From positions 1,890,001 through 1,922,000 of the forward strand of contig NZ_CP015137.1 of the NCBI RefSeq assembly GCF_001644705.1: a stretch of 32,000 bases of DNA, read 5' to 3'. This DNA is from Dickeya solani IPO 2222. GTDB taxonomy: Bacteria; Pseudomonadota; Gammaproteobacteria; Enterobacterales; Enterobacteriaceae. A program made the translations under genes and the position numbers. This document shows, piece by piece, positions 1,366-26,331 of this stretch (positions within the stretch are counted from its first letter, which is position 1; the number at the start of each line of letters is the position of its first letter). Under the pieces are notes generated by a model. That model was not told the DNA's origin, ran no database searches, and worked only from the letters and a program-made list of their open reading frames with translations.

Positions 1366-2877
<1,512 letters not shown>

Positions 2878-2897
2878 AATCATCGTTATCCTTGATC

Positions 2898-2921
2898 GGG
2901 CGCGGCTATCGCGCCCTTTTT
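2898..2921 (+). terminator. Rho-independent terminator after glpK
   Basis: Hairpin GGGCGCG-GCTAT-CGCGCCC followed by TTTTT, about 20 nt after the glpK stop. Confidence 0.7.
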
Positions 2922-3009
2922 CCTTTCCCCCCCACCCCGTCCGTCATTACGCCTGTGCTACCATAATGCCCCGACGATTCCTTTATTCCCCCGCTCAAGA
3001 CAGGTACCC

Positions 3010-4020
3010 ATGAAACGTGAATTAGCCATCGAATTCTCCCGCGTTACCGAAGCGGCCGCGCTGGCCGGTTACAAATGGCTGGGCCGTGGCGATAAGAACG
3101 CCGCCGACAACGCCGCGGTGCAGGCGATGCGCATCATGCTCAATCAGGTCGACATCAACGGTAAAATCGTCATCGGCGAAGGCGAGATCGATGAAGCGCC
3201 GATGCTCTACATCGGCGAGCAGGTGGGTACCGGACGCGGCGACGCAGTGGATATCGCCGTCGATCCGATCGAAGGCACCCGGATGACGGCGATGGGGCAG
3301 GCTAACGCACTGGCGGTGCTGGCGGTAGGCGAGCAGGGAACCTTCCTGCACGCGCCCGACATGTACATGGAAAAGCTGATTGTCGGCCCGCAGGCCAAAG
3401 GCGCCATCGACCTTGACCGCCCGCTGGAAGACAACCTGAAACGGGTCGCAGAACGATTGGGCAAGCCGCTCAACGAACTGACCGTGACTACGCTGGCCAA
3501 GCCGCGCCACGATCGGGTGATCGCCGACATGCAGCGACTGGGCGTAAAAGTGTTCGCCATTCCTGATGGCGACGTGGCCGCCTCTATTCTGACCTGCATG
3601 CCGGAAAGCGAGGTCGACGTGCTCTACGGCATCGGCGGCGCGCCGGAAGGCGTGATCTCGGCGGCGGTGATCCGCGCGCTGGACGGCGACATGCAGGGGC
3701 GTCTGCTGGCCCGCCATCAGGTGAAGGAAGACAATGCGGAAAACCGCCGGCTGGGCGAGCAGGAGCTGGCGCGCTGCCGTGAAATGGGCATCGAAGCCGG
3801 CAAGGTGCTGATGCTGGACGACATGGCGCGCAACGACAACGTGATCTTTTCCGCCACCGGCATCACCAAGGGCGATCTGCTCGACGGCATTTCCCGCCGC
3901 GGTAACATCGCGACCACCGAAACGCTGCTGATCCGCGGCAAATCGCGCACCATCCGTCGCATCAGTTCCACCCATTATCTGGACCGCAAGGATCAGGCGC
4001 TGCACGCCTTTCTGCTGTAG
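3010..4020 (+). CDS. glpX: Class II fructose-1,6-bisphosphatase GlpX
   Basis: 336-aa ORF with N-terminus MKRELAIEFSRVTEAAALAGYKWLGRGDKNAAD, typical of GlpX. Position is syntenic after glpK. Confidence 0.95.
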   Translation: MKRELAIEFSRVTEAAALAGYKWLGRGDKNAADNAAVQAMRIMLNQVDINGKIVIGEGEIDEAPMLYIGEQVGTGRGDAVDIAVDPIEGTRMTAMGQANALAVLAVGEQGTFLHAPDMYMEKLIVGPQAKGAIDLDRPLEDNLKRVAERLGKPLNELTVTTLAKPRHDRVIADMQRLGVKVFAIPDGDVAASILTCMPESEVDVLYGIGGAPEGVISAAVIRALDGDMQGRLLARHQVKEDNAENRRLGEQELARCREMGIEAGKVLMLDDMARNDNVIFSATGITKGDLLDGISRRGNIATTETLLIRGKSRTIRRISSTHYLDRKDQALHAFLL

Positions 4021-5457: not shown

Positions 5458-6054
5458 ATGATGAAAAATGCCCTGTTGATTGTTTGTTGCCTGTCTGCTG
5501 GACTACTCTGCACTCCGTTTGCCCGAAGTGACGGTCTGTTCCAGCAAAAACCCCCGACCGCCGCGCCTTATCTGCTGTCAGGTTCTCCCACGTTCGATAT
5601 GAACATCATACAGTTTCGCACTCGCTATAACCTGAGCAACCCATCGTTGCCGATTAGCGAATACCGGGTGATCGATACCGGCGATGACTCGCCCAATCTG
5701 ACGCGCGCCGCCAGCCGCATCAACGATCGCCTGTATTCTTCCACCGCGCTGGAAAAAGGCACCGGCAAGATCAAAACCATGCAGATTACCTGGCTGCCCA
5801 AACCAAAAGACACCGACCAAAGCGGGCGACGCAAACAGGCTATCGGGTACATGGCGGCGCTGGTGCGTACTTTTATGCCGTCGTTGACCAACGAGCAAAG
5901 CCTGAAAAAGATCGAAACATTGCTGGAAAAAGGCAAAGGTCAGCGCTTTTACCAGCAAACGGAGGGAGCGTTGCGCTACGTCGTGGCGGATCATGGCGAA
6001 AAAGGGCTAACTTTCGCTGTTGAACCGATTAAGCTGGCGCTATCTGATTCGTGA
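5458..6054 (+). CDS. yiiQ: DUF1454 periplasmic protein YiiQ
   Basis: Clear similarity to E. coli YiiQ (APYLL.G.PTFD..I.QFR, NLTRAAS.IN..LY.STALE.G, GALRYVVAD.GEKGLTFAVEPIKLALS). The start is placed at MMKNALLIV, which gives a signal peptide; the ORF track begins at 5425. Confidence 0.85.
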   Translation: MMKNALLIVCCLSAGLLCTPFARSDGLFQQKPPTAAPYLLSGSPTFDMNIIQFRTRYNLSNPSLPISEYRVIDTGDDSPNLTRAASRINDRLYSSTALEKGTGKIKTMQITWLPKPKDTDQSGRRKQAIGYMAALVRTFMPSLTNEQSLKKIETLLEKGKGQRFYQQTEGALRYVVADHGEKGLTFAVEPIKLALSDS

Positions 6055-6195
6055 TCACATCGAGAATTAGGCACGAAAAACAGAGCCACCGTGCCATTTC
6101 AACTCTATACTATCGTCAGTTTTGTATCATCGTCAGATTGGCTGCCTGACGCAGCCATGTATTGATTAACTGGCAAATCGCCTGGAGGAAACAAG

Positions 6196-6966
6196 ATGCG
6201 ACACCCCTTAGTCATGGGCAACTGGAAGCTGAACGGCAGCACCAGCATGGTTCACGAACTGATTGCCGGCCTGCGTAACGAACTGAGCGCCGTTACCGGT
6301 TGTGGCGTGGCCATCGCGCCGCCGGCTATTTATCTGGATCAAGCTAAACACCTGCTGGCAGGCAGCCGTATTGCACTGGGTGCCCAGAACGTGGACGTCA
6401 ACCTTGCCGGCGCCTTCACCGGTGAAACCTCCGCCGCCATGCTGAAAGACATCGGCGCCAAATACATCATCATCGGCCACTCCGAACGCCGTACTTATCA
6501 TCACGAAAGCGACGAATTCATCGCTAAAAAATTCGCCGTGCTGAAAGAAACCGGCCTGATTCCGGTACTGTGCATCGGTGAAACCGAAGCCGAAAACGAA
6601 GCCGGCCAGACCGAAGCCGTATGCGCGCGTCAACTGGATGCCGTGCTGAATACGCTGGGTGCAAAAGCGTTCGAAAACACCGTGGTTGCCTATGAGCCGG
6701 TTTGGGCCATCGGCACCGGCAAATCCGCCACCCCGGCGCAGGCGCAGGCGGTGCATAAATTCATCCGCAACCACATCGCTAAACAGGATGCAGCGGTAGC
6801 CGAGCAGGTAATCATTCAGTACGGCGGGTCGGTCAATGCCGCCAACGCCGCTGAGCTCTTCACCCAGCCGGACATCGACGGCGCGCTGGTTGGCGGCGCC
6901 TCGCTGAAAGCCGATGCCTTCGCGGTCATCGTCAAAGCGGCCGCCGAAGCCAAAAGCCAAGCCTGA
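6196..6966 (+). CDS. tpiA: Triosephosphate isomerase
   Basis: 256-aa ORF with [22 protein letters not shown] and [11 protein letters not shown] signatures. Confidence 0.98.
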
Positions 6967-6988
6967 TTAGCCCCGCTGATATCGCATA

Positions 6989-7017
6989 ACGGCTCCTCTT
7001 CGGGAGCCGTTTTTTTA
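6989..7017 (+). terminator. Rho-independent terminator after tpiA
   Basis: Hairpin ACGGCTCC-TCTTCG-GGAGCCGT followed by a run of T residues. Confidence 0.8.
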
Positions 7018-7054
7018 TGCCTTTTTTCCACCCATGCCGGCTGCATTCATCATT

Positions 7055-7073
7055 CTGTCATTTTCTCTGTCTA
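7055..7073 (+). promoter_or_regulatory. Pho-box-like direct repeat upstream of phoA
   Basis: CTGTCAT-TTTCT-CTGTCTA resembles the PhoB box CTGTCATAWAWCTGTCAY, with the spacer one nt longer than consensus. It lies about 50 nt upstream of the phoA start. Confidence 0.4.
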
Positions 7074-7120
7074 GGTTTTACCACACATGTTTATTTGTTA
7101 CTTAATTTAACAGCGAGTGA

Positions 7121-8575
7121 ATGACAATGATCCGTAAGGCTTTGATCCGCAAAACTCTGATCAACAAAACCCTGATCCACAAAACCCTGCTCTCTTCTCT
7201 GATGATGACGCTTATCGCCGGTAGCGCACTGGCCGCCAGCGCCGATTACCACCGTCAGGCTCAGGGCGACATCACTCAGCCCGGCGGCGCGCGCCGCCTC
7301 AGCGCCGATCAGACCGAGATGCTGAAAGCCTCACTCAACGCGAAAACCGCCAAAAACGTGATTCTGCTGATTGGCGACGGCATGGGCGACTCTGAAATCA
7401 CTGCCGCGCGCAACTACGCGCTGGGCGCAGGCGGTTTCTTCAAAGGCATCGACGCGCTGCCGCTGACCGGTCAGTACACCCACTACTCGCTGGACAAGAA
7501 AACCCGCAAACCGGACTACGTCACCGACTCCGCCGCGTCGGCCACTGCCTGGTCCAGCGGCGTCAAAACCTACAACGGCGCGCTGGGCGTGGATGTGGAC
7601 GGCAAAGACCACAGCACGCTGATTGAAATCGCCAAAGCGGCGGGCAAAGCCACCGGCAACGTTTCCACCGCCGAACTGGAAGACGCCACGCCGGCCGCAA
7701 TGGTGTCGCACGTAACGTCCCGTAAGTGCTACGGCCCGGAAAAAACCAGCCAGCAGTGCCCGACTAACGCACTGGAAAACGGCGGCCGCGGTTCCATCGC
7801 CGAACAGCTGCTGGTTAGCCGCGCCGATGTCACGCTGGGCGGTGGCGCGGCCACGTTCAAAGAAATCGCCAAAGCCGGTAAATATCAGGGTAAAAGCCTG
7901 AAAGAACAGGCGGACGCGCTGGGCTACCACCTCGTAACCGATCTGGACGGCATGAATGCCGTTACCGCCGCCAGCCAGAGCAAGCCGGTGCTGGGCCTGT
8001 TCGCCGACGGCAACATGCCGGTGCGCTGGCAGGGACCGAAAGCCAGCTACCACGGCAACCTCGATAAACCGGTAGTGACCTGTGAACCCAACGCCCAGCG
8101 CGGCGCCGGCGTACCGACACTGTCGCAAATGACCGATAAAGCCATCCAGTTGTTGAGCAAGAACAAAAACGGTTTCTTCCTGCAGGTGGAAGGCGCCTCT
8201 ATCGACAAGCAGGACCACGCCGCCAACCCGTGCGGTCAGTTCGGCGAAACGGTGGATCTGGACGAAGCGGTACAGAAAGCGCTGGAATTCGCCCGTCGCG
8301 ACGGTAACACGCTGGTGATCGTCACCGCCGACCACGCCCACTCCAGCCAGATCGTCGAAAACGGCGCCAAAGCACCGGGCCTGACGCAGGCGCTGAACAC
8401 CAAAGATGACGCAGTGATGACCATCAGCTACGGCAACTCGGAAGAAGAGTCGCAGGGCCACACCGGCACCCAGCTGCGCATCGCCGCCTACGGTCCGCAC
8501 GCCGCTAACGTGGTGGGACTGACCGACCAGACCGACCTGTTCTACACCATGAAAAACGCGATGGGACTGAAATAA
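7121..8575 (+). CDS. phoA: Alkaline phosphatase
   Basis: 484-aa ORF with the active-site motif [12 protein letters not shown] and metal-ligand regions ([23 protein letters not shown]). It has an N-terminal signal peptide with an unusual repeat-containing n-region. Confidence 0.93.
7127..7186 (+). repeat. 15-bp imperfect tandem repeat x4, in frame at the 5' end of phoA
   Basis: The units are ATGATCCGTAAGGCT, TTGATCCGCAAAACT, CTGATCAACAAAACC and CTGATCCACAAAACC. They encode [20 protein letters not shown]. Confidence 0.85.
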
Positions 8576-13878: not shown

Positions 13879-14343
13879 ATGAAACGCCGACCTGCCTCAC
13901 GCCTGCTGATCCTCGATCCTGAGCAACGGGTGTTGTTATTCCTGTTCCATCATACCCGGGATGCCCTTGCCGGGGAGCGTTATTGGGCGACGCCGGGCGG
14001 CGCAGTGGAAAGCGGAGAAACGTTTGAGCAGGCGGCGTTGCGTGAACTGTGGGAAGAGACCGGCATCCGCCGTCAGGATCCCGGCCCCTGCCTCGCCGCC
14101 CGAACCTTTAACATGGCGATGCCCAACGGGGACACCGTGATTGCCGATGAACGGTTTTTTGTCATCCGCGTCACGGACAGCGCCATCCACACTGACGCAT
14201 GGACAGCACATGAACGGGAAGTGATGCGGGACCACCACTGGTGGAGCCGCGATGAACTGCTCGCCACGCAGGACCAGTTCTATCCGGAACAACTGGTTGA
14301 GATGCTGTGGCCGGCTACGGGCGAGGCATTCCTATCCAGTTAG
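13879..14343 (+). CDS. Nudix hydrolase
   Basis: Nudix box GGAVESGETFEQAALRELWEETGI. The start is placed at MKRRPASRLLILD (ATG 13879); the ORF track begins at 13834. Confidence 0.85.
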   Translation: MKRRPASRLLILDPEQRVLLFLFHHTRDALAGERYWATPGGAVESGETFEQAALRELWEETGIRRQDPGPCLAARTFNMAMPNGDTVIADERFFVIRVTDSAIHTDAWTAHEREVMRDHHWWSRDELLATQDQFYPEQLVEMLWPATGEAFLSS

Positions 14344-14960
14344 GAAGCCGGGGGAACAGGCCAGCTGATAGCTGGGGCACTGGCTGGGTCGGTGCGGTTT
14401 AACCGCACCAGATAGGTTTTCCAGTCTTTCAGTGCCTGTGTTTCCTGTTCGGTGGCAATATCCAATTCCTGCGCGTAAGTCAGCTCACGGATACGGTCAT
14501 GCGCCGTCTGACGCCGCATATCGCATTCCTGTCGGACTGCCTGCACCTGACTTGCCTGATGCGCCGCCGTATCCGTTACCCATTGCACACCATCCCAGCG
14601 GTCAAATTCGCTCGCTGGTGGCAACAAGGTCAAGTTGGCGGGTAACGGCCCCAGCTCACTCACCACCTGCGGCCGGCGCATCTGCGTATCGTAGGCAGTC
14701 TGCCCACGGAGATCCGGTACCTGTTCCCAACATAGGCCATCGGACGAACGGCGCAGTGCCTGTCTTTCCGCCACGGGCTGAGGCGGTTCATCGGCATAAC
14801 TGTGCGCCGGAATCCCTGTTCCCAACATCAGATATTCCTCGCTGCTACCATAATATTCACAGGTTACCGTATCCGCGTGATACACCCGTAGCCAGCCTGC
14901 CTCGGATGCCAGCCCATCCGCCGCCAGCACCGCGCGCGTTTCCTGCGTCGACACCACCAT
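14340..14960 (-). CDS. Phage tail-fibre assembly chaperone (Tfa / P2 gpG-like)
   Basis: About 206 aa with a pattern typical of Tfa proteins (YYGSSEEYLMLGTGIPAHSYADEPP, then a C-terminal region with W..Y...L.R). Its ATG overlaps the TGA of the upstream fibre gene (TGATG). Confidence 0.85.
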   Translation of the reverse strand: MVVSTQETRAVLAADGLASEAGWLRVYHADTVTCEYYGSSEEYLMLGTGIPAHSYADEPPQPVAERQALRRSSDGLCWEQVPDLRGQTAYDTQMRRPQVVSELGPLPANLTLLPPASEFDRWDGVQWVTDTAAHQASQVQAVRQECDMRRQTAHDRIRELTYAQELDIATEQETQALKDWKTYLVRLNRTDPASAPAISWPVPPAS

Positions 14961-16078
14961 CACGCAGCCCTCACGATGTAGTTAAAGGCAAGGTTACGGG
15001 GGCGTGCAACACCACAATAGGGATAGGGATCAGTTGCCGTTTGACCAGACACAATGTTAACTCGGATTGACGGATATTTGGCCGAGGTCAGTTCCGCGGT
15101 ATCCCAGCCTACATTGGCTTTTGTCGTTGCTTCGCCAACATTATTCAACGTCGCCATGTTCACATTGTTGGCAATATCGCCAACGATGAGTGATCCCGTC
15201 TGTGCTGACAAAATAGCGCGCCCGGCATCTACTCCTCGCCCATCATCCCAGCCACGAATAAATTCGCCGCGCAAATCCGGCAATACACCTGACGGATAGA
15301 CGACCGCCAGCCGTGGATACCGATTTTTATCAAACGCTTGACCGTTACATTTAAGCCAGCCCGCCGGGGCGGTAGCCTGCGGCCACGGCAATGGAATACC
15401 AACGATGTCATTAATATCCAGTTTTAGTTTGACGCTGTTGCCTGTTTGACCTGATAGCAAATTAATAGCGCCAGCAACAAACGCAGTGGTTGCCAGTTGT
15501 GTCGTATTGGTTCCTGCCACCGCTGTCGGCGCGGTGGGATTGCCGATTAACGCTGGGCTGGCAATCGGGGCATATTGCTTGTGCGGGTTGGCAGCCGCGA
15601 CGTGATCCGTTAACAGCGTGTCGGCATAGCGCCGCGTCGCCAGCGCCACTGTCGGATCAATATTCAGTGTTACCGCATCAGTACGGCTGACAATCAGAAT
15701 CATGCGCACCGTCTGTATCCGGCCCGACCCTTCCTTCAATTCTGGCTTATAGGTTTCCGGGCAGTTACCGACCGCGATCAGATTACCGTCCACATCGTAC
15801 AAACCGATTTCACGCAACCAGAACCCACCTTCATTTTCTGGAATCACTTGTTCGGCAATAATCTGGTTAGCATTGTTAGAATCAACAGTGAGCGAATTAA
15901 TTTTCCCGCGCCGTTTTTCATTGATCAGTTTGACCTGACTCGGGTCCGGCACCAACAGCGCACCGCCCCCATCTCCCACCCCCATCTGGGTAATTTCCAG
16001 TGGTTTTCCGGTCGAAATCGCTTCAGCCAATTTGAGCTCACCGACTCGGGTGAGCAACGTAAAGTATTTAATACCCAT
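14960..16078 (-). CDS. Tail fibre 1: P2 gpH-like N-terminal module plus a phage tail-collar C-terminal domain
   Basis: The N-terminus MGIKYFTLLTRVGELKLAEAI..LEITQMGVGDGGG..GGFWLREIGLYD resembles the P2 gpH / DUF3751 attachment domain. The C-terminus carries the collar motif PAGWLKCNGQAFDKNRYPRLAVVYPSGVLPDLRGEFIRGW. The start is at ATG 16078. Confidence 0.88.
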   Translation of the reverse strand: MGIKYFTLLTRVGELKLAEAISTGKPLEITQMGVGDGGGALLVPDPSQVKLINEKRRGKINSLTVDSNNANQIIAEQVIPENEGGFWLREIGLYDVDGNLIAVGNCPETYKPELKEGSGRIQTVRMILIVSRTDAVTLNIDPTVALATRRYADTLLTDHVAAANPHKQYAPIASPALIGNPTAPTAVAGTNTTQLATTAFVAGAINLLSGQTGNSVKLKLDINDIVGIPLPWPQATAPAGWLKCNGQAFDKNRYPRLAVVYPSGVLPDLRGEFIRGWDDGRGVDAGRAILSAQTGSLIVGDIANNVNMATLNNVGEATTKANVGWDTAELTSAKYPSIRVNIVSGQTATDPYPYCGVARPRNLAFNYIVRAA

Positions 16079-16160
16079 AGTTTCTCTCATCAAAATTACT
16101 TACCTGGGAAAGTCATACGACTTCGAGGGTGTGCTACTCATGAAAGAAAATGAAACGCTA

Positions 16161-16263
16161 TTTTTTTCAAGCGATTCATGCTCGTTATCATCGTGAACAA
16201 CATTATGCTATATGCCTGAGGAAATAACGCGATATGAGAGGTGTGGCATTCATGACACAACAG
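16161..16263 (-). promoter_or_regulatory. Conserved element A: candidate Ogr-type late promoter for fibre 1
   Basis: One of four homologous elements. On the gene strand it has CATAAT (complement of 16202-16207) with no -35, and a perfect TGT-N12-ACA dyad at 16242-16259 (-64..-47). Confidence 0.4.
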
Positions 16264-16303
16264 AGAAAACACTTAGAATGAGTGACTAATACTTTTTCTT
16301 GCC

Positions 16304-16333
16304 AAAAAAATGGTCTCAATCATTAATGAGACC
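16304..16333 (-). terminator. Rho-independent terminator of fibre 2
   Basis: On the minus strand, hairpin GGTCTCA-TTAATGAT-TGAGACC is followed by ATTTTTTT, about 80 nt after the fibre 2 stop. Confidence 0.7.
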
Positions 16334-16415
16334 AATGAATAAAAACCTAAAAAATGAATATCAGAAAAGAGAATAAGACAGAAAAATCCTCATAAACTCA
16401 TCATCAACCAGAATC

Positions 16416-17702
16416 TCATATAGCATATTTAGATATGGCAATAATAACCGTCGCATTTCCTGATGTTGCGTTACTCGCAGAAGCTACGATATGTCCCTCA
16501 TCAACAATCAGAATATCAGCATAATTATTTGACACCTCCATATTTGCAAACACATAATTTGTTGCCTGCTGACCGGAAACAGGACTCAGATTACTAGACA
16601 CTGTTATGGATAAAAGGCCATCTGCCGTACTACTCTGCCGTAATACCCCACTAATAGTTCTTGTATTCAATGGAATGAATTTACTAACGGGAATATCAAT
16701 ACCTGATGTATTTGGCAATCCAGAATAGACTCTTGTTCCAGGAATATGCACCTGCCTTCCAAAGACAGATAATACGGTAAACTTACCCGCCTTGACCGGC
16801 ACAACCGTCAATAATGCCGATGCTGCGTATCCATCCGGCATACTGGCTCCATTATAGATCTCCGGCAATTTAACTGAGGTGGCGTTAACCGCGAGCAAGC
16901 CAGACAACATCGTTACCGGATTATAAATGGCATAAATCCCGACAAACCCTTCATCAGGGACCGTTCCGGTATCCATCCCCCCAACGCCATTTTTTGTCAG
17001 ATCGATCGTCTTCTTGAATAAACCAATTCGATATTGGTTTCCCCCCAGAGCAGTTCCAACAATTATCTCATCGGCAGTAAATGTGGCGCTGGAAGAAGCG
17101 GAGGGAATATTCATCGTGGCATTTCGCGTCATGCCAATTACACCGGAGAATGAGCTCCTCACACCCAAATTCTCTATAAACTGAGCTTTATTCGTAATAT
17201 CCGTACCATTTTGAGCTTTAGCCAGTTTTCCGTCAGCCATGTTATCTACATACTGCCGGCTAGCCAGCACCACCGCCGGGTCGATTTTCAGCGACACCGC
17301 ATCAGTCTGACCGACCGCCAGAATCATGCGTACCGTCTGCACGCGGCTGGAGCCTTCCTGCATCTGCGGTTTATAGGTTTCGGGGCAGTTGGCCACCGCC
17401 ACCAGATTGTCATCGGCGTCATACAAACCGATTTCACGCAGCCAGAATCCACCTTCATGATCCGGAATTACCTGCTCGACAATAATCTGATTGGCGTTAG
17501 TCGGGTCGATACTCAATGAATTGATCAGCGCGCGCCGTTTTTCGTTAATCAGTTTGGTCTGTGCCGCATCCGGTGTCGGCAGCGTGCCACCAGCGTCTCC
17601 CACCCCCATTTGGGTAATTTCCAGCTGTTTTCCCAGCGCAATCGCATTCGCCAGCCTGGCTGCCCCCACCTGGGTAAGCAGAGCGGTATATTTTGTGCTC
17701 AT
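16416..17702 (-). CDS. Tail fibre 2: P2 gpH-like N-terminal module with a different, chaperone-less distal part
   Basis: 428 aa from MSTKYTALLTQVGAARLANAIALGKQLEITQMGVGDAGG, the gpH/DUF3751-like start. The ORF track extends 26 codons further upstream into the leader. It is about 95% identical by eye to fibre 3, except for the last 116 or so codons. Confidence 0.85.
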   Translation of the reverse strand: MSTKYTALLTQVGAARLANAIALGKQLEITQMGVGDAGGTLPTPDAAQTKLINEKRRALINSLSIDPTNANQIIVEQVIPDHEGGFWLREIGLYDADDNLVAVANCPETYKPQMQEGSSRVQTVRMILAVGQTDAVSLKIDPAVVLASRQYVDNMADGKLAKAQNGTDITNKAQFIENLGVRSSFSGVIGMTRNATMNIPSASSSATFTADEIIVGTALGGNQYRIGLFKKTIDLTKNGVGGMDTGTVPDEGFVGIYAIYNPVTMLSGLLAVNATSVKLPEIYNGASMPDGYAASALLTVVPVKAGKFTVLSVFGRQVHIPGTRVYSGLPNTSGIDIPVSKFIPLNTRTISGVLRQSSTADGLLSITVSSNLSPVSGQQATNYVFANMEVSNNYADILIVDEGHIVASASNATSGNATVIIAISKYAI

Positions 17703-17898
17703 AACGTGTCTCATCAGAATTAGCGATAAAGGGACCCATGCAAGGGTATGGAACAGATACCGCCACGCCTGTCGATACACGCTTTTCCAAGCGATTTCAG
17801 CCCGTTGTGGCAGTGGAGGACATTATGCTGACGAGCCAGCAAAAACGCGCGTCATAGGGGTTGGCGCAGTCATGGCACAACAGCGTGAAGAAAAGGCA
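16765..17898 (-). repeat. Direct repeat copy 1 (about 1.13 kb): fibre 2 body, leader and promoter element B
   Basis: Near-identical to 19741-20865 with one 9-bp indel (DGK). Homology ends at 16765 on the 3' side and at the IS boundary on the 5' side. Confidence 0.85.
17781..17883 (-). promoter_or_regulatory. Conserved element B: candidate Ogr-type late promoter for fibre 2
   Basis: Almost identical to element D. It has CATAAT (complement of 17822-17827) and a TGT-N12-CCA dyad at 17862-17879, with the same spacing as A and D. Confidence 0.4.
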
Positions 17899-17977
17899 GT
17901 GTAAGTATCCCGCTAAACCGAACCATTCATTTTTAGAGATCTTCCGACATACTGTTTATGTCCTCGAGGAGATCACC

Positions 17978-18244
17978 ATGCGTAAAGCCCGATTCACTGA
18001 GCACCAGATCATCGCCGTTCTCAAGTCCGTCGAAGCCGGACGTACCGTCAAGGATGTCTGCCGCGAAGCCGGCATTTCCGAAGCCAGCTATTACAACTGG
18101 AAAGCGAAGTTTGGTGGTATGGAAGCCTCTGATATCAAAAAGATGAAAGATCTGGAGGATGAGAATCGCCGTCTGAAACAGATGTTTGCCGATCTGAGTC
18201 TTGAGAATCGGGCATTAAAAGACGTCATTGAAAAAAAGCTTTAA
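17978..18244 (+). CDS. IS3-family transposase OrfA (HTH)
   Basis: MRKARFTEHQIIAVLKSVEAGRTVKDVCREAGISEASYYNWKAKFGGM is typical of IS3/IS407-group OrfA. GAGGAG precedes ATG 17978. A leucine-zipper-like C-terminus ends at the slippery site 18232-18238. Confidence 0.9.
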   Translation: MRKARFTEHQIIAVLKSVEAGRTVKDVCREAGISEASYYNWKAKFGGMEASDIKKMKDLEDENRRLKQMFADLSLENRALKDVIEKKL

Positions 18245-18249
18245 AACCA

Positions 18250-19089
18250 GTGATAAAGCGTGAGCTCGTCAGCTATCTGACGGCGGAATTTACGATGAGC
18301 ATCCGCCAGGCATGCAGGACGTTATCACTGAGCAGGACGGTATTCCGTTATCAGCCGGATACGCGACGTGGTGAGCCGGTGATTATGGCACTGACCGTGG
18401 CGGCTGAACGCTATCCGCGATATGGATTTAAAAAGCTTTTTCAGGTAATTCGCAGGCAGGACAATATCTGGAACCATAAAAGAGTTCACCGGATTTACTG
18501 CCTACTGAAACTGAATTTTCGCCGTAAGGGAAAGCAACGTCTGCCGGTGCGCAATCCGGCTCCGCTGGCGACGCCGAAGGCACTTAACCAGAACTGGTCG
18601 ATAGATTTTATGCATGATGCGCTGATCTGTGACAGACGCTTCCGGACCTTCAATGTGGTGGATGACTTTAACCGCGAAGCGCTGGCGATTGAAATTGACC
18701 TGAATATCACTGCGCAGCGGGTCGTTCGGGTACTTGACCGAATCGTGGCAAACCGCGGATATCCGATGAAGATGCGTATGGATAACGGGCCAGAGCTGAT
18801 CTCGCTGACGCTGGCACAATGGGCAGAAGAGCATGGTGTGATGCTGGAATTTATCAGGCCCGGCAAGCCAACGCAAAATGCATTTATCGAGCGCTTTAAC
18901 CGGACGTACCGGACAGAAATACTGGATTTTTATCTGTTCAGAACGCTGAATGAAGTACGGGAAATAACAGAGCGCTGGCTGACTGAATATAACAGCGAAC
19001 GGCCTCATGAATCCCTGAATAACCTGGCGCCGGAAGAATACCGGCTGATGACTGAAAAACCGGATATCTCAAAAAGTGCGTGGAATTAA
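18250..19089 (+). CDS. IS3-family transposase OrfB (DDE integrase domain), probably made as an OrfAB fusion by -1 frameshifting
   Basis: DDE motifs WSIDFMHD, MDNGPE and NAFIERFNRTYR are present. The frame is -1 relative to orfA and stays open back to the A AAA AAG heptamer. Confidence 0.9.
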   Translation: MIKRELVSYLTAEFTMSIRQACRTLSLSRTVFRYQPDTRRGEPVIMALTVAAERYPRYGFKKLFQVIRRQDNIWNHKRVHRIYCLLKLNFRRKGKQRLPVRNPAPLATPKALNQNWSIDFMHDALICDRRFRTFNVVDDFNREALAIEIDLNITAQRVVRVLDRIVANRGYPMKMRMDNGPELISLTLAQWAEEHGVMLEFIRPGKPTQNAFIERFNRTYRTEILDFYLFRTLNEVREITERWLTEYNSERPHESLNNLAPEEYRLMTEKPDISKSAWN

Positions 19090-19150
19090 AACGGGTGCAC
19101 TTACAACACAACACCGGTATGAAATGCTTATGAAAGAAAATGGAATACCA

Positions 19151-19269
19151 TATTTTTCAAGCGATTCATGCCCGTTGTTATCGTTAACAACATTATGCTG
19201 AACGCTTAACGCAATAACGCAATAACGCAATAACGCAATATAGGAAGCGTGGTGTTTATGGCACAACAG
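19151..19269 (-). promoter_or_regulatory. Conserved element C: orphan, spacing-altered copy of the promoter-like element
   Basis: It has the same blocks as A (CATAAT is the complement of 19192-19197, and CTGTTGTGCCAT the complement of 19258-19269). The spacing between dyad and -10 is 16 nt longer, and the element is followed by the IS rather than by a gene. Confidence 0.35.
19207..19238. repeat. Perfect octanucleotide tandem repeat (TAACGCAA)x4
   Basis: Read directly: four contiguous identical 8-mers inside element C. Confidence 0.95.
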
Positions 19270-19307
19270 AAAAAACTCTTAGCTTGTGTTACCCATCACA
19301 TTCTTTA

Positions 19308-19337
19308 CAAGAAAATTGCCTCATTTATTAATGAGGC
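19308..19337 (-). terminator. Probable rho-independent terminator of fibre 3
   Basis: On the minus strand, hairpin GCCTCATT-AATA-AATGAGGC is followed by AATTTTCTT, about 55 nt after the fibre 3 stop. Confidence 0.6.
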
Positions 19338-19391
19338 CAATGAATAAATCTAGAAAAAATTAATTTTATAAAAAATCGGCCTACTCATAGA

Positions 19392-20669
19392 TTATATTAA
19401 ATATCTAGAAACATGAGCTTCAAATGTTGGATTTCCTGATGTTGCATCACTTGTGGCAATAGAAACATAACCATCATTAACGATTACAACATCAGCATAA
19501 TTCTGCGAGATAAGTCCATTTGCTATAGTATAGGCTGTCATCTGCTGTCCAGATAAAACATTTTCACCACCACAAATTGTCATAGATAATAATCCAGAAG
19601 CAGTGCTACTTTGTCGAACATACCCACTTATAAGTTTAGTATTTAATGGAACAACACTACTAATAGAAACATTAAAATTTGTTGTGATTTTTAAAGTAGA
19701 ATATATTCTCTTGGGTGATATATATACGCATCGTCCTCGAACAGATAATAAGGTAAACTTACCCGCCTTGACCGGCACAACCGTCAATAATGCCGATGCT
19801 GTATATCCACCCGGCATATTGGTTCCGTTATAAATTTCCGGCAACTTGACCGAGGTGGCGTTAACCGCGAGCAAGCCAGACGCCATCGTCGCCGGATTAT
19901 AAATGGCATAAATCCCGACAAAACCTTCATCAGGGACCGTTCCGGTATCCATTCCCCCAACGCCAGTTTTTGTCAGATCGATCGTCTTTTCGAATAAACC
20001 AATTCGATACTGGCTGCCTCCCAAAGACGTCCCAACAATGATTTCATCGGCAACAAACCTGGCATTAGAAGAAGCGGAGGGGATATTCATCGTGGCATTT
20101 CTCGTCATGCCAATGACACCGGAGAATGAGCTCCTTACGCCCAAATTATCTATAAACTGAGCTTTATCGGCAATATCCGTGCCATTTTGAGCTTTAGCCA
20201 GAGCCATGTTATCTACATACTGCCGGCTAGCCAGCACCACCGCCGGGTCGATTTTCAGCGACACCGCATCAGTCTGACCGACCGCCAGAATCATGCGTAC
20301 CGTCTGCACGCGGCTGGAGCCTTCCTGCATCTGCGGTTTATAGGTTTCGGGACAGTTGGCCACCGCCACCAGATTGTCATCGGCGTCATACAAACCGATT
20401 TCACGCAGCCAGAATCCACCTTCGTGATCCGGGATCACCTGCTCGGCAATAATCTGATTGGCGTTGGCCGGGTCGATGTTCAATGAATTGATCGGCGCGC
20501 GCCGTTTCTCGTTAATCAGTTTGGTCTGTGTCGCATCTGGCGTCGGCAGCGTGCCACCAGCGTCTCCCACCCCCATTTGGGTAATTTCCAGCTGTTTTCC
20601 CAGCGCAATCGCATTCGCCAGCCTGGCTGCCCCCACCTGGGTAAGCAGAGCGATATATTTTGTGCTCAT
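19392..20669 (-). CDS. Tail fibre 3: paralogue of fibre 2 with a divergent C-terminal tip
   Basis: 425 aa from MSTKYIALLTQVGAARLANAIALGKQLEITQMGVGDAGG. It is colinear with fibre 2 and diverges sharply after ..VPVKAGKFT. Confidence 0.85.
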   Translation of the reverse strand: MSTKYIALLTQVGAARLANAIALGKQLEITQMGVGDAGGTLPTPDATQTKLINEKRRAPINSLNIDPANANQIIAEQVIPDHEGGFWLREIGLYDADDNLVAVANCPETYKPQMQEGSSRVQTVRMILAVGQTDAVSLKIDPAVVLASRQYVDNMALAKAQNGTDIADKAQFIDNLGVRSSFSGVIGMTRNATMNIPSASSNARFVADEIIVGTSLGGSQYRIGLFEKTIDLTKTGVGGMDTGTVPDEGFVGIYAIYNPATMASGLLAVNATSVKLPEIYNGTNMPGGYTASALLTVVPVKAGKFTLLSVRGRCVYISPKRIYSTLKITTNFNVSISSVVPLNTKLISGYVRQSSTASGLLSMTICGGENVLSGQQMTAYTIANGLISQNYADVVIVNDGYVSIATSDATSGNPTFEAHVSRYLI

Positions 20670-20865
20670 AACGTGTCTCATCAGAATTAGCGATAAAGGG
20701 ACCCATGCAAGGGTATGGAACAGATTCCGCCACGCCTGTCGATACACGCTTTTCCTAGCGATTTCAGCCCGTTGTGGCAGTGGAGGACATTATGCTGACG
20801 GGCCAGCAAAAACGCGCGTCATGGGGGTTGGCACAGTCATGGCACAACAGCGCGAAGAAAAGGCA
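19741..20865 (-). repeat. Direct repeat copy 2: fibre 3 body, leader and promoter element D
   Basis: Near-identical to 16765-17898. Confidence 0.85.
20748..20850 (-). promoter_or_regulatory. Conserved element D: candidate Ogr-type late promoter for fibre 3
   Basis: It has CATAAT (complement of 20789-20794) and a TGT-N12-CCA dyad at 20829-20846. It lies immediately downstream of the cpxP terminator. Confidence 0.4.
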
Positions 20866-20880
20866 CCACAGAATGCGGGC

Positions 20881-20907
20881 AAAAAAAAGCCCTCCATCAA
20901 GGAGGGC
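20881..20907 (-). terminator. Rho-independent terminator of cpxP
   Basis: On the minus strand, GCCCTCC-TTGAT-GGAGGGC is followed by TTTTTTTT. Confidence 0.88.
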
Positions 20908-24129: not shown

Positions 24130-26331
24130 ATGAAAGGATTAGCCTTACTGGCTGGAATCATCGCTACGCTGGTACAGATGCCGGCATACGCTTCCGGCGA
24201 TGGCGTATGCGGTTTTTCCGATGCCGATTGCGGTATGCCCGCGCTTCCCTATCTCCTGCCGGATAACGACACCCGCACCAATCTGGTGCTGCTGCAGAGC
24301 AGCCGTAATCGTATTCCGCTGCCGATCCCGCAGCCGGAGCCGGATCAAACCAGTTCCCGCGTAGACCCGTTTACCGCTTACCGCGTGATGGGACTGGCTG
24401 CCACCGAAGACAATAGCGATAGCGCGGAAACCAACGCGCCAGCCGACCCCAACGCCCCCTCGGACGACAAAGCCGACGCAGAGAATGCCTCGCTGCTGCA
24501 AAAAGCCACCCAGCTGCATTTTCCGGATGCCGAGCTGAGCAAGCTGCGCGACCTGACGCCGGTTGATCTGGACGGACGCTGGGTTTCCAACGATCTCACC
24601 ACGCTGGAGAGCTTTTTCGATCTGCTACTGGCGGACAAGGAACTGAACGATGCCCAGCGCACCCAACTGGCGCTGGTGCGAATGAGAATGCTGTCCAGCG
24701 AATACGGCGCCGACAACGCCAATACCGATCTGTCCAGCATACCGGACGTCGGCCACGCCGGTGAGCTGCGCCGCTACCTCGCCAACGCAGTGACATTTTA
24801 TGAAGGACAGTTGGAACAAGCGGACAAAGGCTTCCAGCAGTTGTTGCCAGCCAGCCAGCCGTGGGTAGCGGAAACGGCCCGTTATATGCTGATTAGGGTA
24901 TCGATTAATCTGGCGATGAAAGACGCGCTGGACGAATACAACATGTTCGATCCCCGCAAGATAGACAAGGCCGCCGGGAAACAGGCGGTTCAGCGTATCG
25001 ATGAGTACCTGAAACAGTATCCGCGGGGGAAATACGCCGACTCGGCCGAGGGCCTGTACCGCCGGGCCGAGTGGATCAGCGGCGACACCGTCGCGCTGGC
25101 TGGTCGTTTTAGCCAGGTACTGGCGTCCGCCAAAAGCGTGGATCAGTTGCAGGCCATCAGCAATGAAATCGACAACAAGCTGCTGGAAGACAACCAGTTT
25201 GTGACCTCGGCCGATACGCCGGTCCTGATGCTGGTGCAGGACATCAAACGCTTGCGCAGCCCTGACGGCTGGATGACGCTGCCCGCCTTGACGCAGGAGG
25301 AAATCACCCGTCAGCAACCGCTGTTTGAAAAAGCGGGTATGCAGGAAGAGTTTCACTATCTGCAGGCGGCGTTTCAGTATTATCAGCAGCGGGACTACGC
25401 CTCGGTACTGAAAACCTTGCCGATGACCACTGCGGAAGATATCACCGGCGTCACCGTCTTCAGCAGCCAGGTGCTGCGTGGGCTGGCGATGCAGCGGCAG
25501 AAACAGTGGGACGACGCGGAGGCGCACTGGCGCCATCTGCTGATGTTGAAAACCACCGATACCCAGCAACAGTTCCTGCAACTGATGCTGGCGCAAACTC
25601 TGGTGGACAGCGGCCAGCCGGGACGGGTATTCACGCCGGAAAGCCCGGTCAAAAACCTTCGTTTTCGCTCCGCCATCCTGAAAGTCAGCGCCGATGCCGA
25701 GCTGCTGCACCGGCAGACCGGCCCCCAGCAAACACATGAAGAACGTGCCATCGCCCTGCACACGCTGTTGACCAAGCAGCTGACACATCGCGATTACGCC
25801 GGTTTTCTCAAAGACAGCGAGCTGCTGAAAACCATCGCGCCGCTGAAAAGCACCGAGAACATGAGCTGGAACGAGGAAGACCTGACCGTATTCGGCTGGG
25901 ACGGCAGCGACACCGAGGAGGGGTACGAATGCCCAACCCTGCAGGAAACAGTCACCACCCTGAGCCAGAACGCCAATGACGCCCACGCCCTCAACTGTCT
26001 GGGCGAGTTCTTCCTGCGCACCGGCAACGGCGTCGGATTCGACTGGGGCGAAAGCAACATGCTCAACGGCCTGACGGACGCCGCCGCCCAGTATCCGGGC
26101 CAGGAATTCAATCGTCTGAACAACTACATGCAAGTGATCGCCGACGCGAAAGCTGCGCCGGAAGACAAGAGTTACGCGCTCTACCGCGCCATCTACTGTT
26201 ATGCGCCAAGCGGTTACAACGACTGCGGGTCGCAGGATATCAGCAAGGAAACGCGCAAGGCGTGGTTCCGGCAGCTTAAAACGGACTTTAAAGGCAGCCA
26301 ATGGGCGCGACAGCTCAAATACTATTGGTAG
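24130..26331 (+). CDS. Large secreted protein of unknown function (733 aa)
   Basis: Long ORF in the only sensible frame. It has an N-terminal signal peptide (..LVQMPAYA-SG), an acidic/proline-rich low-complexity region, helical TPR-like stretches (YPRGKYADSAEGLYRRAEW) and a Cys-containing C-terminus ending YYW. GGAAAAGGA precedes the ATG. Confidence 0.8.
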   Translation: MKGLALLAGIIATLVQMPAYASGDGVCGFSDADCGMPALPYLLPDNDTRTNLVLLQSSRNRIPLPIPQPEPDQTSSRVDPFTAYRVMGLAATEDNSDSAETNAPADPNAPSDDKADAENASLLQKATQLHFPDAELSKLRDLTPVDLDGRWVSNDLTTLESFFDLLLADKELNDAQRTQLALVRMRMLSSEYGADNANTDLSSIPDVGHAGELRRYLANAVTFYEGQLEQADKGFQQLLPASQPWVAETARYMLIRVSINLAMKDALDEYNMFDPRKIDKAAGKQAVQRIDEYLKQYPRGKYADSAEGLYRRAEWISGDTVALAGRFSQVLASAKSVDQLQAISNEIDNKLLEDNQFVTSADTPVLMLVQDIKRLRSPDGWMTLPALTQEEITRQQPLFEKAGMQEEFHYLQAAFQYYQQRDYASVLKTLPMTTAEDITGVTVFSSQVLRGLAMQRQKQWDDAEAHWRHLLMLKTTDTQQQFLQLMLAQTLVDSGQPGRVFTPESPVKNLRFRSAILKVSADAELLHRQTGPQQTHEERAIALHTLLTKQLTHRDYAGFLKDSELLKTIAPLKSTENMSWNEEDLTVFGWDGSDTEEGYECPTLQETVTTLSQNANDAHALNCLGEFFLRTGNGVGFDWGESNMLNGLTDAAAQYPGQEFNRLNNYMQVIADAKAAPEDKSYALYRAIYCYAPSGYNDCGSQDISKETRKAWFRQLKTDFKGSQWARQLKYYW

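Follow-up and report, generated by a model that had tools for sequence, protein, structure and literature searches.

Predicted Ogr-type late promoters ahead of orphan tail-fibre genes in Dickeya solani

A 32,000-nucleotide (nt) stretch of the Dickeya solani IPO 2222 chromosome, called the window below, carries four related elements of ~100 bp (A to D) and three tail-fibre genes of the phage P2 gpH type, all on the minus strand and all between cpxP and fieF. Judging from their sequences, elements A, B and D, each of which precedes one fibre gene, are probably late promoters that depend on an activator of the Ogr family. More tentatively, and with somewhat less than even confidence, we suggest that the cpxP-fieF island may be a remote, unlinked library of receptor-binding proteins for P2D1, a P2-like tailocin of Dickeya, wired to it through the site of the late activator only. 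Promoters of this type are textbook P2 biology and were already known; what appears undescribed is the layout of one promoter to one fibre on a genus-conserved island that is unlinked to phage or tailocin genes, and the implied regulon is the first concrete regulatory model for P2D1. In full-text literature searches, no publication came up that connects tailocins with Ogr and an island of this kind, and none in which Dickeya fibres beside cpxP are mentioned; the cpxP-fieF locus has apparently never before been connected with a tailocin.

Elements, fibre genes and promoter geometry

Pfam scans of the window identify pfkA, fieF, an HTH-2TM gene, a NUDIX gene, a tail-fibre chaperone, three P2 gpH-type fibres and cpxP-cpxR-cpxA. 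They find no further phage genes in the window beyond the fibres and the chaperone, for which reason we regard the fibre genes as an orphan island between cpxP and fieF; the window likewise holds no Ogr-like reading frame. The features of the island, in gene-strand order, are as follows (aa, amino acids).

20889–20907, minus strand: intrinsic terminator after cpxP, just upstream of element D (GCCCTCCttgatGGAGGGC followed by T8)
20748–20850, minus strand: element D, predicted activator-dependent late promoter of fibre 3 (alignment and patterns), with the activator site at 20849–20827 (TGTTGTGCCATGACTGTGCCAAC), the -10 hexamer CATAAT at 20794–20789, a predicted start at ~20782 and a leader of 113 nt
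19392–20669, minus strand: fibre gene 3, 425 aa, with an N-terminal P2 gpH-type domain, PF12571 (Pfam)
19318–19337, minus strand: terminator after fibre 3
19151–19269, minus strand: element C, an apparently decayed orphan copy (alignment and patterns)
17900–19105, plus strand: IS3-family insertion sequence (IS) between C and B
17781–17883, minus strand: element B, predicted late promoter of fibre 2, with the site at 17882–17860, the -10 at 17827–17822 and a predicted start at ~17815
16416–17702, minus strand: fibre gene 2, 428 aa
16311–16334, minus strand: terminator after fibre 2
16161–16263, minus strand: element A, predicted late promoter of fibre 1 and its assembly gene, with a perfect TGT-N12-ACA, the site at 16262–16240, the -10 at 16207–16202 and a predicted start at ~16195
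14960–16078, minus strand: fibre gene 1, 372 aa, PF12571 and Collar domain
14340–14963, minus strand: tail-fibre assembly chaperone (Caudo_TAP), overlapping the fibre 1 stop codon

A, B and D each lie behind an intrinsic terminator that belongs to the preceding gene, and each fibre gene is therefore a transcription unit of its own; the chaperone gene is probably co-transcribed with fibre 1 from element A. Fibres 2 and 3 with their flanks make up a duplicated unit of ~2.97 kb detected with a repeat finder, and exact-sequence look-ups identify the fibres and PfkA as proteins of D. solani and place fibre 3 in D. dadantii as well.

The initial annotation of the window had aligned the four elements by eye. 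A formal multiple alignment with MAFFT and the repeat finder reproduce all four with the boundaries listed, and the alignment yields the three shared blocks that had been described, which on the gene strand read CTGTTGTG(C/T)CAT, AGCATAATGT and ..ACG(G/A)GC..GAATCGCT.G.AAAA. The distances of 1620 bp from A to B and 2967 bp from B to D are borne out by the spacing of the repeat family (1620/1370/1597), and the 51-nt spacing between shared words holds in A, B and D. Elements B and D are 98% identical and A and C 82%, with ~70% between the two types. Their recurrence is beyond chance: a 39-nt degenerate pattern over blocks 2 and 3 has 4 matches against 0.00 expected, and the family consensus of the upstream site, TGTTGTGYYAY-N7-MCA, has 3 against 0.01 expected. 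The statement that one element stands ahead of each fibre gene is correct for A, B and D and fails for C, which heads no gene (four elements, three fibre genes).

In A, B and D the upstream site reads TGTTGTG(Y)CAT-N7-(A/C)CA(A/C)C, and the -10 CATAAT has an invariant G before it. The dyads are as claimed, namely TGT-N12-ACA in A, TGT-N12-CCA in B and D, and TGT-N12-ACG in C. That no -35 accompanies CATAAT also withstands a two-hexamer consensus scan, which finds no sigma-70 -35/-10 pair on the gene strand at A, B or D; on direct reading, the -35 position is occupied by GCGTTA and GCGCGT.

Late promoters of the P2 family require an activator, and its contact with the alpha subunit of RNA polymerase, for transcription, and in P2 itself Ogr recruits the polymerase to promoters that lack a -35. 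For comparison we took the annotated activator sites and transcription starts of pP, pO, pV and pF from the P2 RefSeq record, and in the elements we took CATAAT as the -10 and placed the predicted start 7 nt downstream of it. On this numbering A, B and D all have the first T of TGTTGTG at -67, which is also its position in pO; in pV it lies at -68. The centre of the TGT-N12-(A/C)CA dyad falls at -55.5 in the elements, and the P2 promoters have it at -55.5 (pO and pP), -56.5 (pV) and ~-57.5 (pF). Element B reads ccttttcttcacgcTGTTGTGccatgactgcGCCAACC and P2 pF reads ccttttctttaccggtgGTTGTGctgtcgattaGCCAACC, a likeness that runs through ccttttctt..GTTGTG..GCCAACC. The rule cited in the initial annotation, an Ogr-activated TGT-N12-ACA dyad near -55 with no -35, agrees with the P2 record and with the published account, which describes TGT-N12-ACA in the late promoters of P2 and their dependence on Ogr (PMC3931495).

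The island elements thus share with the P2 promoters PP, PO, PV and PF and the P4 promoters Psid and PLL, which are activated by proteins of the Ogr/Delta/Pag/B zinc-finger family, a TGT-N12-ACA partial dyad on a TGTTGT half-site (at ~-55 from the predicted start), the lack of a -35, a predicted site-to-start distance like that of pO and pV and a position ahead of morphogenetic genes, here gpH-type fibres and a fibre assembly chaperone. They also differ. The P2 record shows H within the V-W-J-I-H-G operon, as the initial annotation had remarked in calling a promoter per fibre unusual, whereas the island has one promoter for each fibre gene; the island -10 is a strong, nearly invariant GCATAAT and the half-site is extended to TGTTGTGYCAY; and the island genes are unlinked to any phage or tailocin cluster.

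Downstream of the -10, the leaders are ~85–120 nt long, and the third shared block is conserved in close relatives only; across the family, what persists is GTTGT after the -10, an ACAAC-like word near +10 and GCTTG near +33. The conserved block, CACAACGGGC..GAAATCGCTTGGAAAA, occupies +8 to +40 of each element (e.g., 17783–17814). The GTTGT...ACAAC around the predicted start is an inverted copy of the activator half-site, with perfect 7-bp arms in C, and the P2D1 sheath promoter has CCACAAC at the corresponding position of the downstream block.

Long leaders and a downstream block that is partly conserved in close relatives are also what a cis-regulatory RNA leader would present, and a loose likeness to a CRP site can be seen in the dyad of A, TGTGTCATGAATGCCACA, so that one might take the elements for leaders of this kind or for ordinary constitutive sigma-70 or CRP-type promoters. 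We regard this as highly improbable. No Rfam family is found at the elements, and RNAalifold applied to 12 leaders gives an energy of 0.0 and no consensus pairs; A, B and D have no TTGACA-like -35 16–18 nt upstream of the -10; and a dyad centred at ~-55.5 fits neither class I (-61.5) nor class II (-41.5) CRP positions. A look-alike of the RfaH ops element in the leader of B, GGCGGTATCTG, was set aside, as it is not conserved in D.

Element C departs from this pattern. Its right half-site reads ACG, so that it lacks the TGT-N12-ACA dyad, and an 8-nt unit, TAACGCAA, is repeated 4.2 times in perfect copies at 19207–19240, where A has a single copy. This expansion makes C 16 nt longer than A, B and D and shifts the activator site 16 nt away from the -10. 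The leader of C runs into the IS, which is followed directly by B, and no gene is served by C. In the related locus L003, introduced below, a C-type element heads a gene like that of fibre 1, for which reason C appears to be a dead promoter left by a rearrangement. The IS ends in TGTAAGT.../...ACTTACA and is flanked by cag and aca, without a target-site duplication; the missing duplication points to a rearrangement that removed the gene once served by C, and suggests an IS-mediated deletion of a fibre-1-like gene formerly behind it. The sole Rfam match in the window, isrN (18243–18385, minus strand, 143.6 bits), lies inside the IS, and in BLAST searches the IS alone is shared with E. coli genomes.

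Related islands and the conservation footprint

Related loci were collected by pattern scans of IMG/VR (L003 and L005–L007) and by protein look-ups with the fibre N-terminus, the matches of which, short partial fibres only, led to L054–L056. The same cpxP-fieF island is present in D. dadantii (L055) and, in a decayed version, in D. dianthicola (L056); on this sequence comparison the island is conserved in the genus and would be a fixed chromosomal feature, as P2D1 is. Loci L005–L007 have six fibre genes each, some with chaperones, and an element before every one of them. A further candidate, L004, was rejected as a chance pattern match in GC-rich DNA, and when element B was compared by BLAST with 50,697 phage records, the only matches were 19–24 nt long and attributable to chance. 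The element pattern, which matches the window 4 times, had no match in the genome collection, where Dickeya appears to be missing.

The stretch that begins with the first T of TGTTGT and closes with the final T of the -10 measures 61 nt in all 28 island elements of the six related loci, apart from one 60-nt subtype that has an extra G after the -10. Without exception, the 19 non-redundant elements have TGTTGT, C20, A21 and C23, and the -10 GCATAAT is largely invariant in them too (its second-last base varies). Mean pairwise identity in this set is 0.66 for the site and 0.74 for the -10, against 0.30 for the flank, 0.38 for the spacer and 0.37 for the sequence after the -10. A conserved site and a conserved -10 held at a fixed distance within otherwise diverged sequence are the footprint of two blocks in contact with protein, and not of a recent duplication.

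This pattern bears on two alternative explanations. According to the first, the elements no longer function and are left over from a P2-like prophage that has decayed, or from tandem duplication, being kept by recent common descent only. In its favour, fibres 2 and 3 with their flanks form the ~2.97-kb duplicated unit, C is visibly decayed, the D. dianthicola island is degraded and fibre 2 is frameshifted in one D. solani assembly. We nevertheless consider relics improbable, because spacer, flank and leader have fallen to 30–38% pairwise identity while the site and -10 stand at 66–74% with an invariant core and a fixed length, and because most fibre open reading frames (ORFs) are intact in several species.

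According to the second, the 5' blocks serve mainly as homology for the shuffling of fibre cassettes, or as sites for a site-specific recombinase. The promoter and the N-terminal domain together form a direct repeat of ~600 bp, P2D1 has an invertase beside a fibre fragment, and tail-fibre recombination is documented in the sister genus (PMC13195805). This explanation is nonetheless very improbable in our view, since the repeats are direct and not inverted, the island encodes no recombinase, and conservation is confined to two short blocks at fixed promoter distances and does not extend across a homology tract. The direct repeats and the lack of a recombinase in the island are also the grounds for rejecting invertase or shufflon crossover sites of the gix/cix/hix type.

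Several details of the related loci are worth recording. In another D. solani assembly (L054, 10001–11285), fibre 2 is split into frames of 234 and 186 aa, so that the island is polymorphic within an otherwise clonal species. The D. dianthicola locus (L056) contains fibre fragments, a methyltransferase and transposase pieces and keeps three intact-looking elements (8313, 9672 and 13568). In L003 (9077–12645), a distance of 2.7 kb separates an island-type fibre and its element from a P2-like prophage end that comprises the C-terminus of gpD and an Ogr of 82 aa; this Ogr is ~91–93% identical to those of Serratia and Symbiopectobacterium prophages, and the 167 nt 5' of the first fibre in L005–L007 match the L003 prophage flank at 94%. 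Finally, a CTGATGAGAGAAA-like sequence just 5' of the start codon, in the translation-initiation region, is kept in most island fibre genes across types (16079–16100, 17703–17725 and 20670–20692 in the window), an exception being two L005 fibres that have AAAAGGAAAAT there.

The resident tailocin and its probable role as source of the activator

The initial annotation had proposed that the locus could be switched on in trans by a resident P2-like element. Such an element exists: Dickeya makes the P2-like tailocin dickeyocin P2D1, the described cluster of which spans 22 kb, and D. solani strains carry this cluster at 95% coverage and 93% identity (PMC10719855 and its supplement). The same supplement lists P2D1 homologues of V, W, J, I, H, FI, FII, E, U and D, together with an ogr homologue (DDA3937_RS12140 in D. 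dadantii 3937, 60% identical to P2 Ogr), and shows a gap of 356 nt between I and H. The fibre, sheath and tube genes of P2D1 are induced ~190- to 900-fold 2 h after mitomycin C (PMC12297226), and the authors state that its regulators are unknown. The main texts of the two P2D1 papers (PMC10719855, PMC12297226) mention neither promoters in the regulatory sense nor Ogr.

For sequence of P2D1 we used IMG/VR segments from other Dickeya sources, found by using the published quantitative PCR primers as patterns. A protein search with the P2D1 Ogr listed no Dickeya entry, in an index that seems to cover the genus incompletely, and one with the P2 sheath yielded closer relatives only and not P2D1. One segment, L066, matches all four of the sheath and tube primers and encodes on its minus strand, in order, an invertase, a fibre fragment, a chaperone, sheath, tube, E, a 367-aa ORF, U, D and a 63-aa Ogr; this P2D1 Ogr homologue (L066 1–192) is of the zinc-finger type. 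The sheath promoter of the segment (P2D1 pF) reads cgcgttctcCTGTTGTGCCATcccataCCCAAC...CACTAT, with the -10-like hexamer ending at nt 61, and contains a 12-mer, CTGTTGTGCCAT, that is identical to that in B, C and D and is followed by the same 11-nt gap to CCAAC. In four other segments (L089–L092) the fibre-H promoter can be read as gpI, a terminator, TGTTGT-N12-ACA(AC) (CCA in L092), CATACT ending at nt 61 and then H; the terminator and separate site between gpI and H indicate that P2D1's own fibre has a private promoter too. The promoter of the X/R operon reads TGTTGTG(C/T)CAT. The expectation that the same motif would recur at the late promoters of the resident cluster is thus upheld in these fragments at the sheath, fibre-H and X/R promoters; the baseplate V promoter matches the site weakly.

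The geometry itself is shared widely. A scan of genome contigs with the L003 Ogr yielded 46 P2-like prophages, with no Dickeya among them, and in 19 of 21 sheath promoters of P2/186-like prophages of other genera (counting those with any candidate) the -10-like hexamer ends at nt 61 after TGTTGT, and the geometry is therefore a hallmark of this phage family as a whole. Island and P2D1 promoters, by contrast, are almost alone in having the extended half-site. Matches to TGTTGTGYCAY number 4 in the window, 22 in the other islands and 8 in the 76 kb of P2D1 sequence, where every one falls at the position of the sheath or X-operon promoter; P2 and 252 kb of other P2-like contigs have none, and 811 kb of other P2-like prophages have 3. 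The fibres point the same way: over their first 150 aa they are 68–74% identical to P2D1 H and 51–53% identical to P2 H.

These comparisons also bear on where the activator comes from. The promoters could be real Ogr-type promoters whose relevant activator is supplied by P2-like phages, either infecting or resident as prophages, in which case the island would exploit or sabotage the phage, its fibres either entering virions and changing host range or acting as decoys that disturb tail assembly. Such an origin is compatible with the tailocin reading. Because P2/186-like prophages from many genera have TGTTGT in the 61-nt geometry, cross-activation is plausible, and L003 has a gpD-ogr prophage end 2.7 kb away from an island-type fibre and its element, a flank that L005–L007 share. 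We hold this origin to be unlikely all the same, given that TGTTGTGYCAY is common to P2D1 promoters and almost absent from other P2-like phages, that the fibre N-termini are nearer to P2D1 H than to P2 H, and that the island, like P2D1, is fixed in the chromosome across the genus. The activator is most likely the 63-aa Ogr-type zinc-finger protein of the resident P2D1, to judge by these sequence relationships.

Two further observations were made in L066. At 5483–7530 a Hin/Gin-type invertase lies beside a fibre C-terminal fragment and a chaperone, with no element detected in the upstream gap of ~170 nt; the arrangement looks like an invertible fibre tip, which would be a second way of varying specificity. 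The 367-aa ORF between E and U (1970–3073) is rich in Gly, Ala and Ser and stands at the place of the P2 tape-measure gene T, which is listed as absent from P2D1 (PMC10719855).

A proposed regulon and its relation to known systems

If P2D1 supplies the activator, DNA damage would lead to production of the P2D1 Ogr homologue, which is predicted to bind the TGTTGTG...(A/C)CA site at ~-55 of A, B and D and would draw RNA polymerase to these -35-less promoters, as in P2. The island would then be switched on together with the tailocin's own sheath and fibre operons, each fibre being transcribed as a separate unit between terminators. As the island fibres combine an N-terminal baseplate-attachment domain of the P2D1 type with differing C-terminal tips, they would mount on tailocin particles and add killing specificities, and one induced cell would load its particles with three to six extra fibre types. 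In a variant of the scheme, the island might also capture the activator of incoming P2-like phages and re-target or poison their tails.

Several points weigh against parts of this proposal. When eight gel bands of purified P2D1 particles were analysed by mass spectrometry, all the fibres reported were encoded within the cluster (PMC10719855). The promoters and ogr gene of IPO 2222's own P2D1 are inferred from the literature and from P2D1 fragments of other Dickeya. Within those fragments the baseplate V promoter is a weak match to the site. In the window, the right half-site of B and D is CCA and not ACA, as is also the case in P2 pO and pF; the conserved block 3' of the -10 has no place in the promoter model; and element C is decayed and looks inactivated.

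P2D1 itself is a close parallel to the island: its sheath and fibre-H promoters share the site and the 61-nt geometry, and its fibre shares the N-terminal domain, while the island lies at another locus, outside the described 22-kb cluster. In the reciprocal transactivation of P2 and P4, late promoters of one element are likewise fired in trans by the activator of another; the island differs in having no satellite functions (replication, capsid-size determination, integrase). PrtN, the SOS-triggered activator of the Pseudomonas aeruginosa pyocins, also turns on unlinked bacteriocin genes that carry the P-box. This regulon resembles the one proposed here in that the activator of a tailocin cluster acts as well on unlinked genes bearing its box, and differs in the activator family, in the box and in the unlinked genes, which there are soluble S-pyocins and not alternative fibres. 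PrtN is mentioned in one of the P2D1 papers (PMC12297226).

Alternative tips on a conserved N-terminal attachment part are also found in the Mu G and P1 C segments, in the fibre inversion of carotovoricin Er and in the variable fibre region of xenorhabdicin. Those systems work by DNA inversion within the cluster and present one tip at a time, whereas the island has complete fibre genes in tandem, each with its own terminator and promoter and possibly all expressed at once. It is a clean natural case of a promoter-per-fibre design in place of DNA inversion.

The finding names a likely activator for P2D1, the Ogr homologue, provides its site and geometry and extends the regulon to a second, unlinked locus. 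Should P2D1 use the island fibres, the target range of a tailocin in crop pathogens would be set outside the cluster that comparative studies now analyse, and tailocin engineering could add specificities by placing a fibre behind a ~100-bp promoter anywhere in the genome. If the island does act as a fibre library, the ability of P2D1 to kill other species and even other genera would be explained, and killing spectra in Dickeya would evolve chiefly through the gain, loss and decay of fibres at the island.

The window also encodes a 733-aa protein without a Pfam match followed by a DUF3142 protein (24130–26331); the pair is conserved beside cpxA in D. solani, D. dadantii and D. dianthicola.

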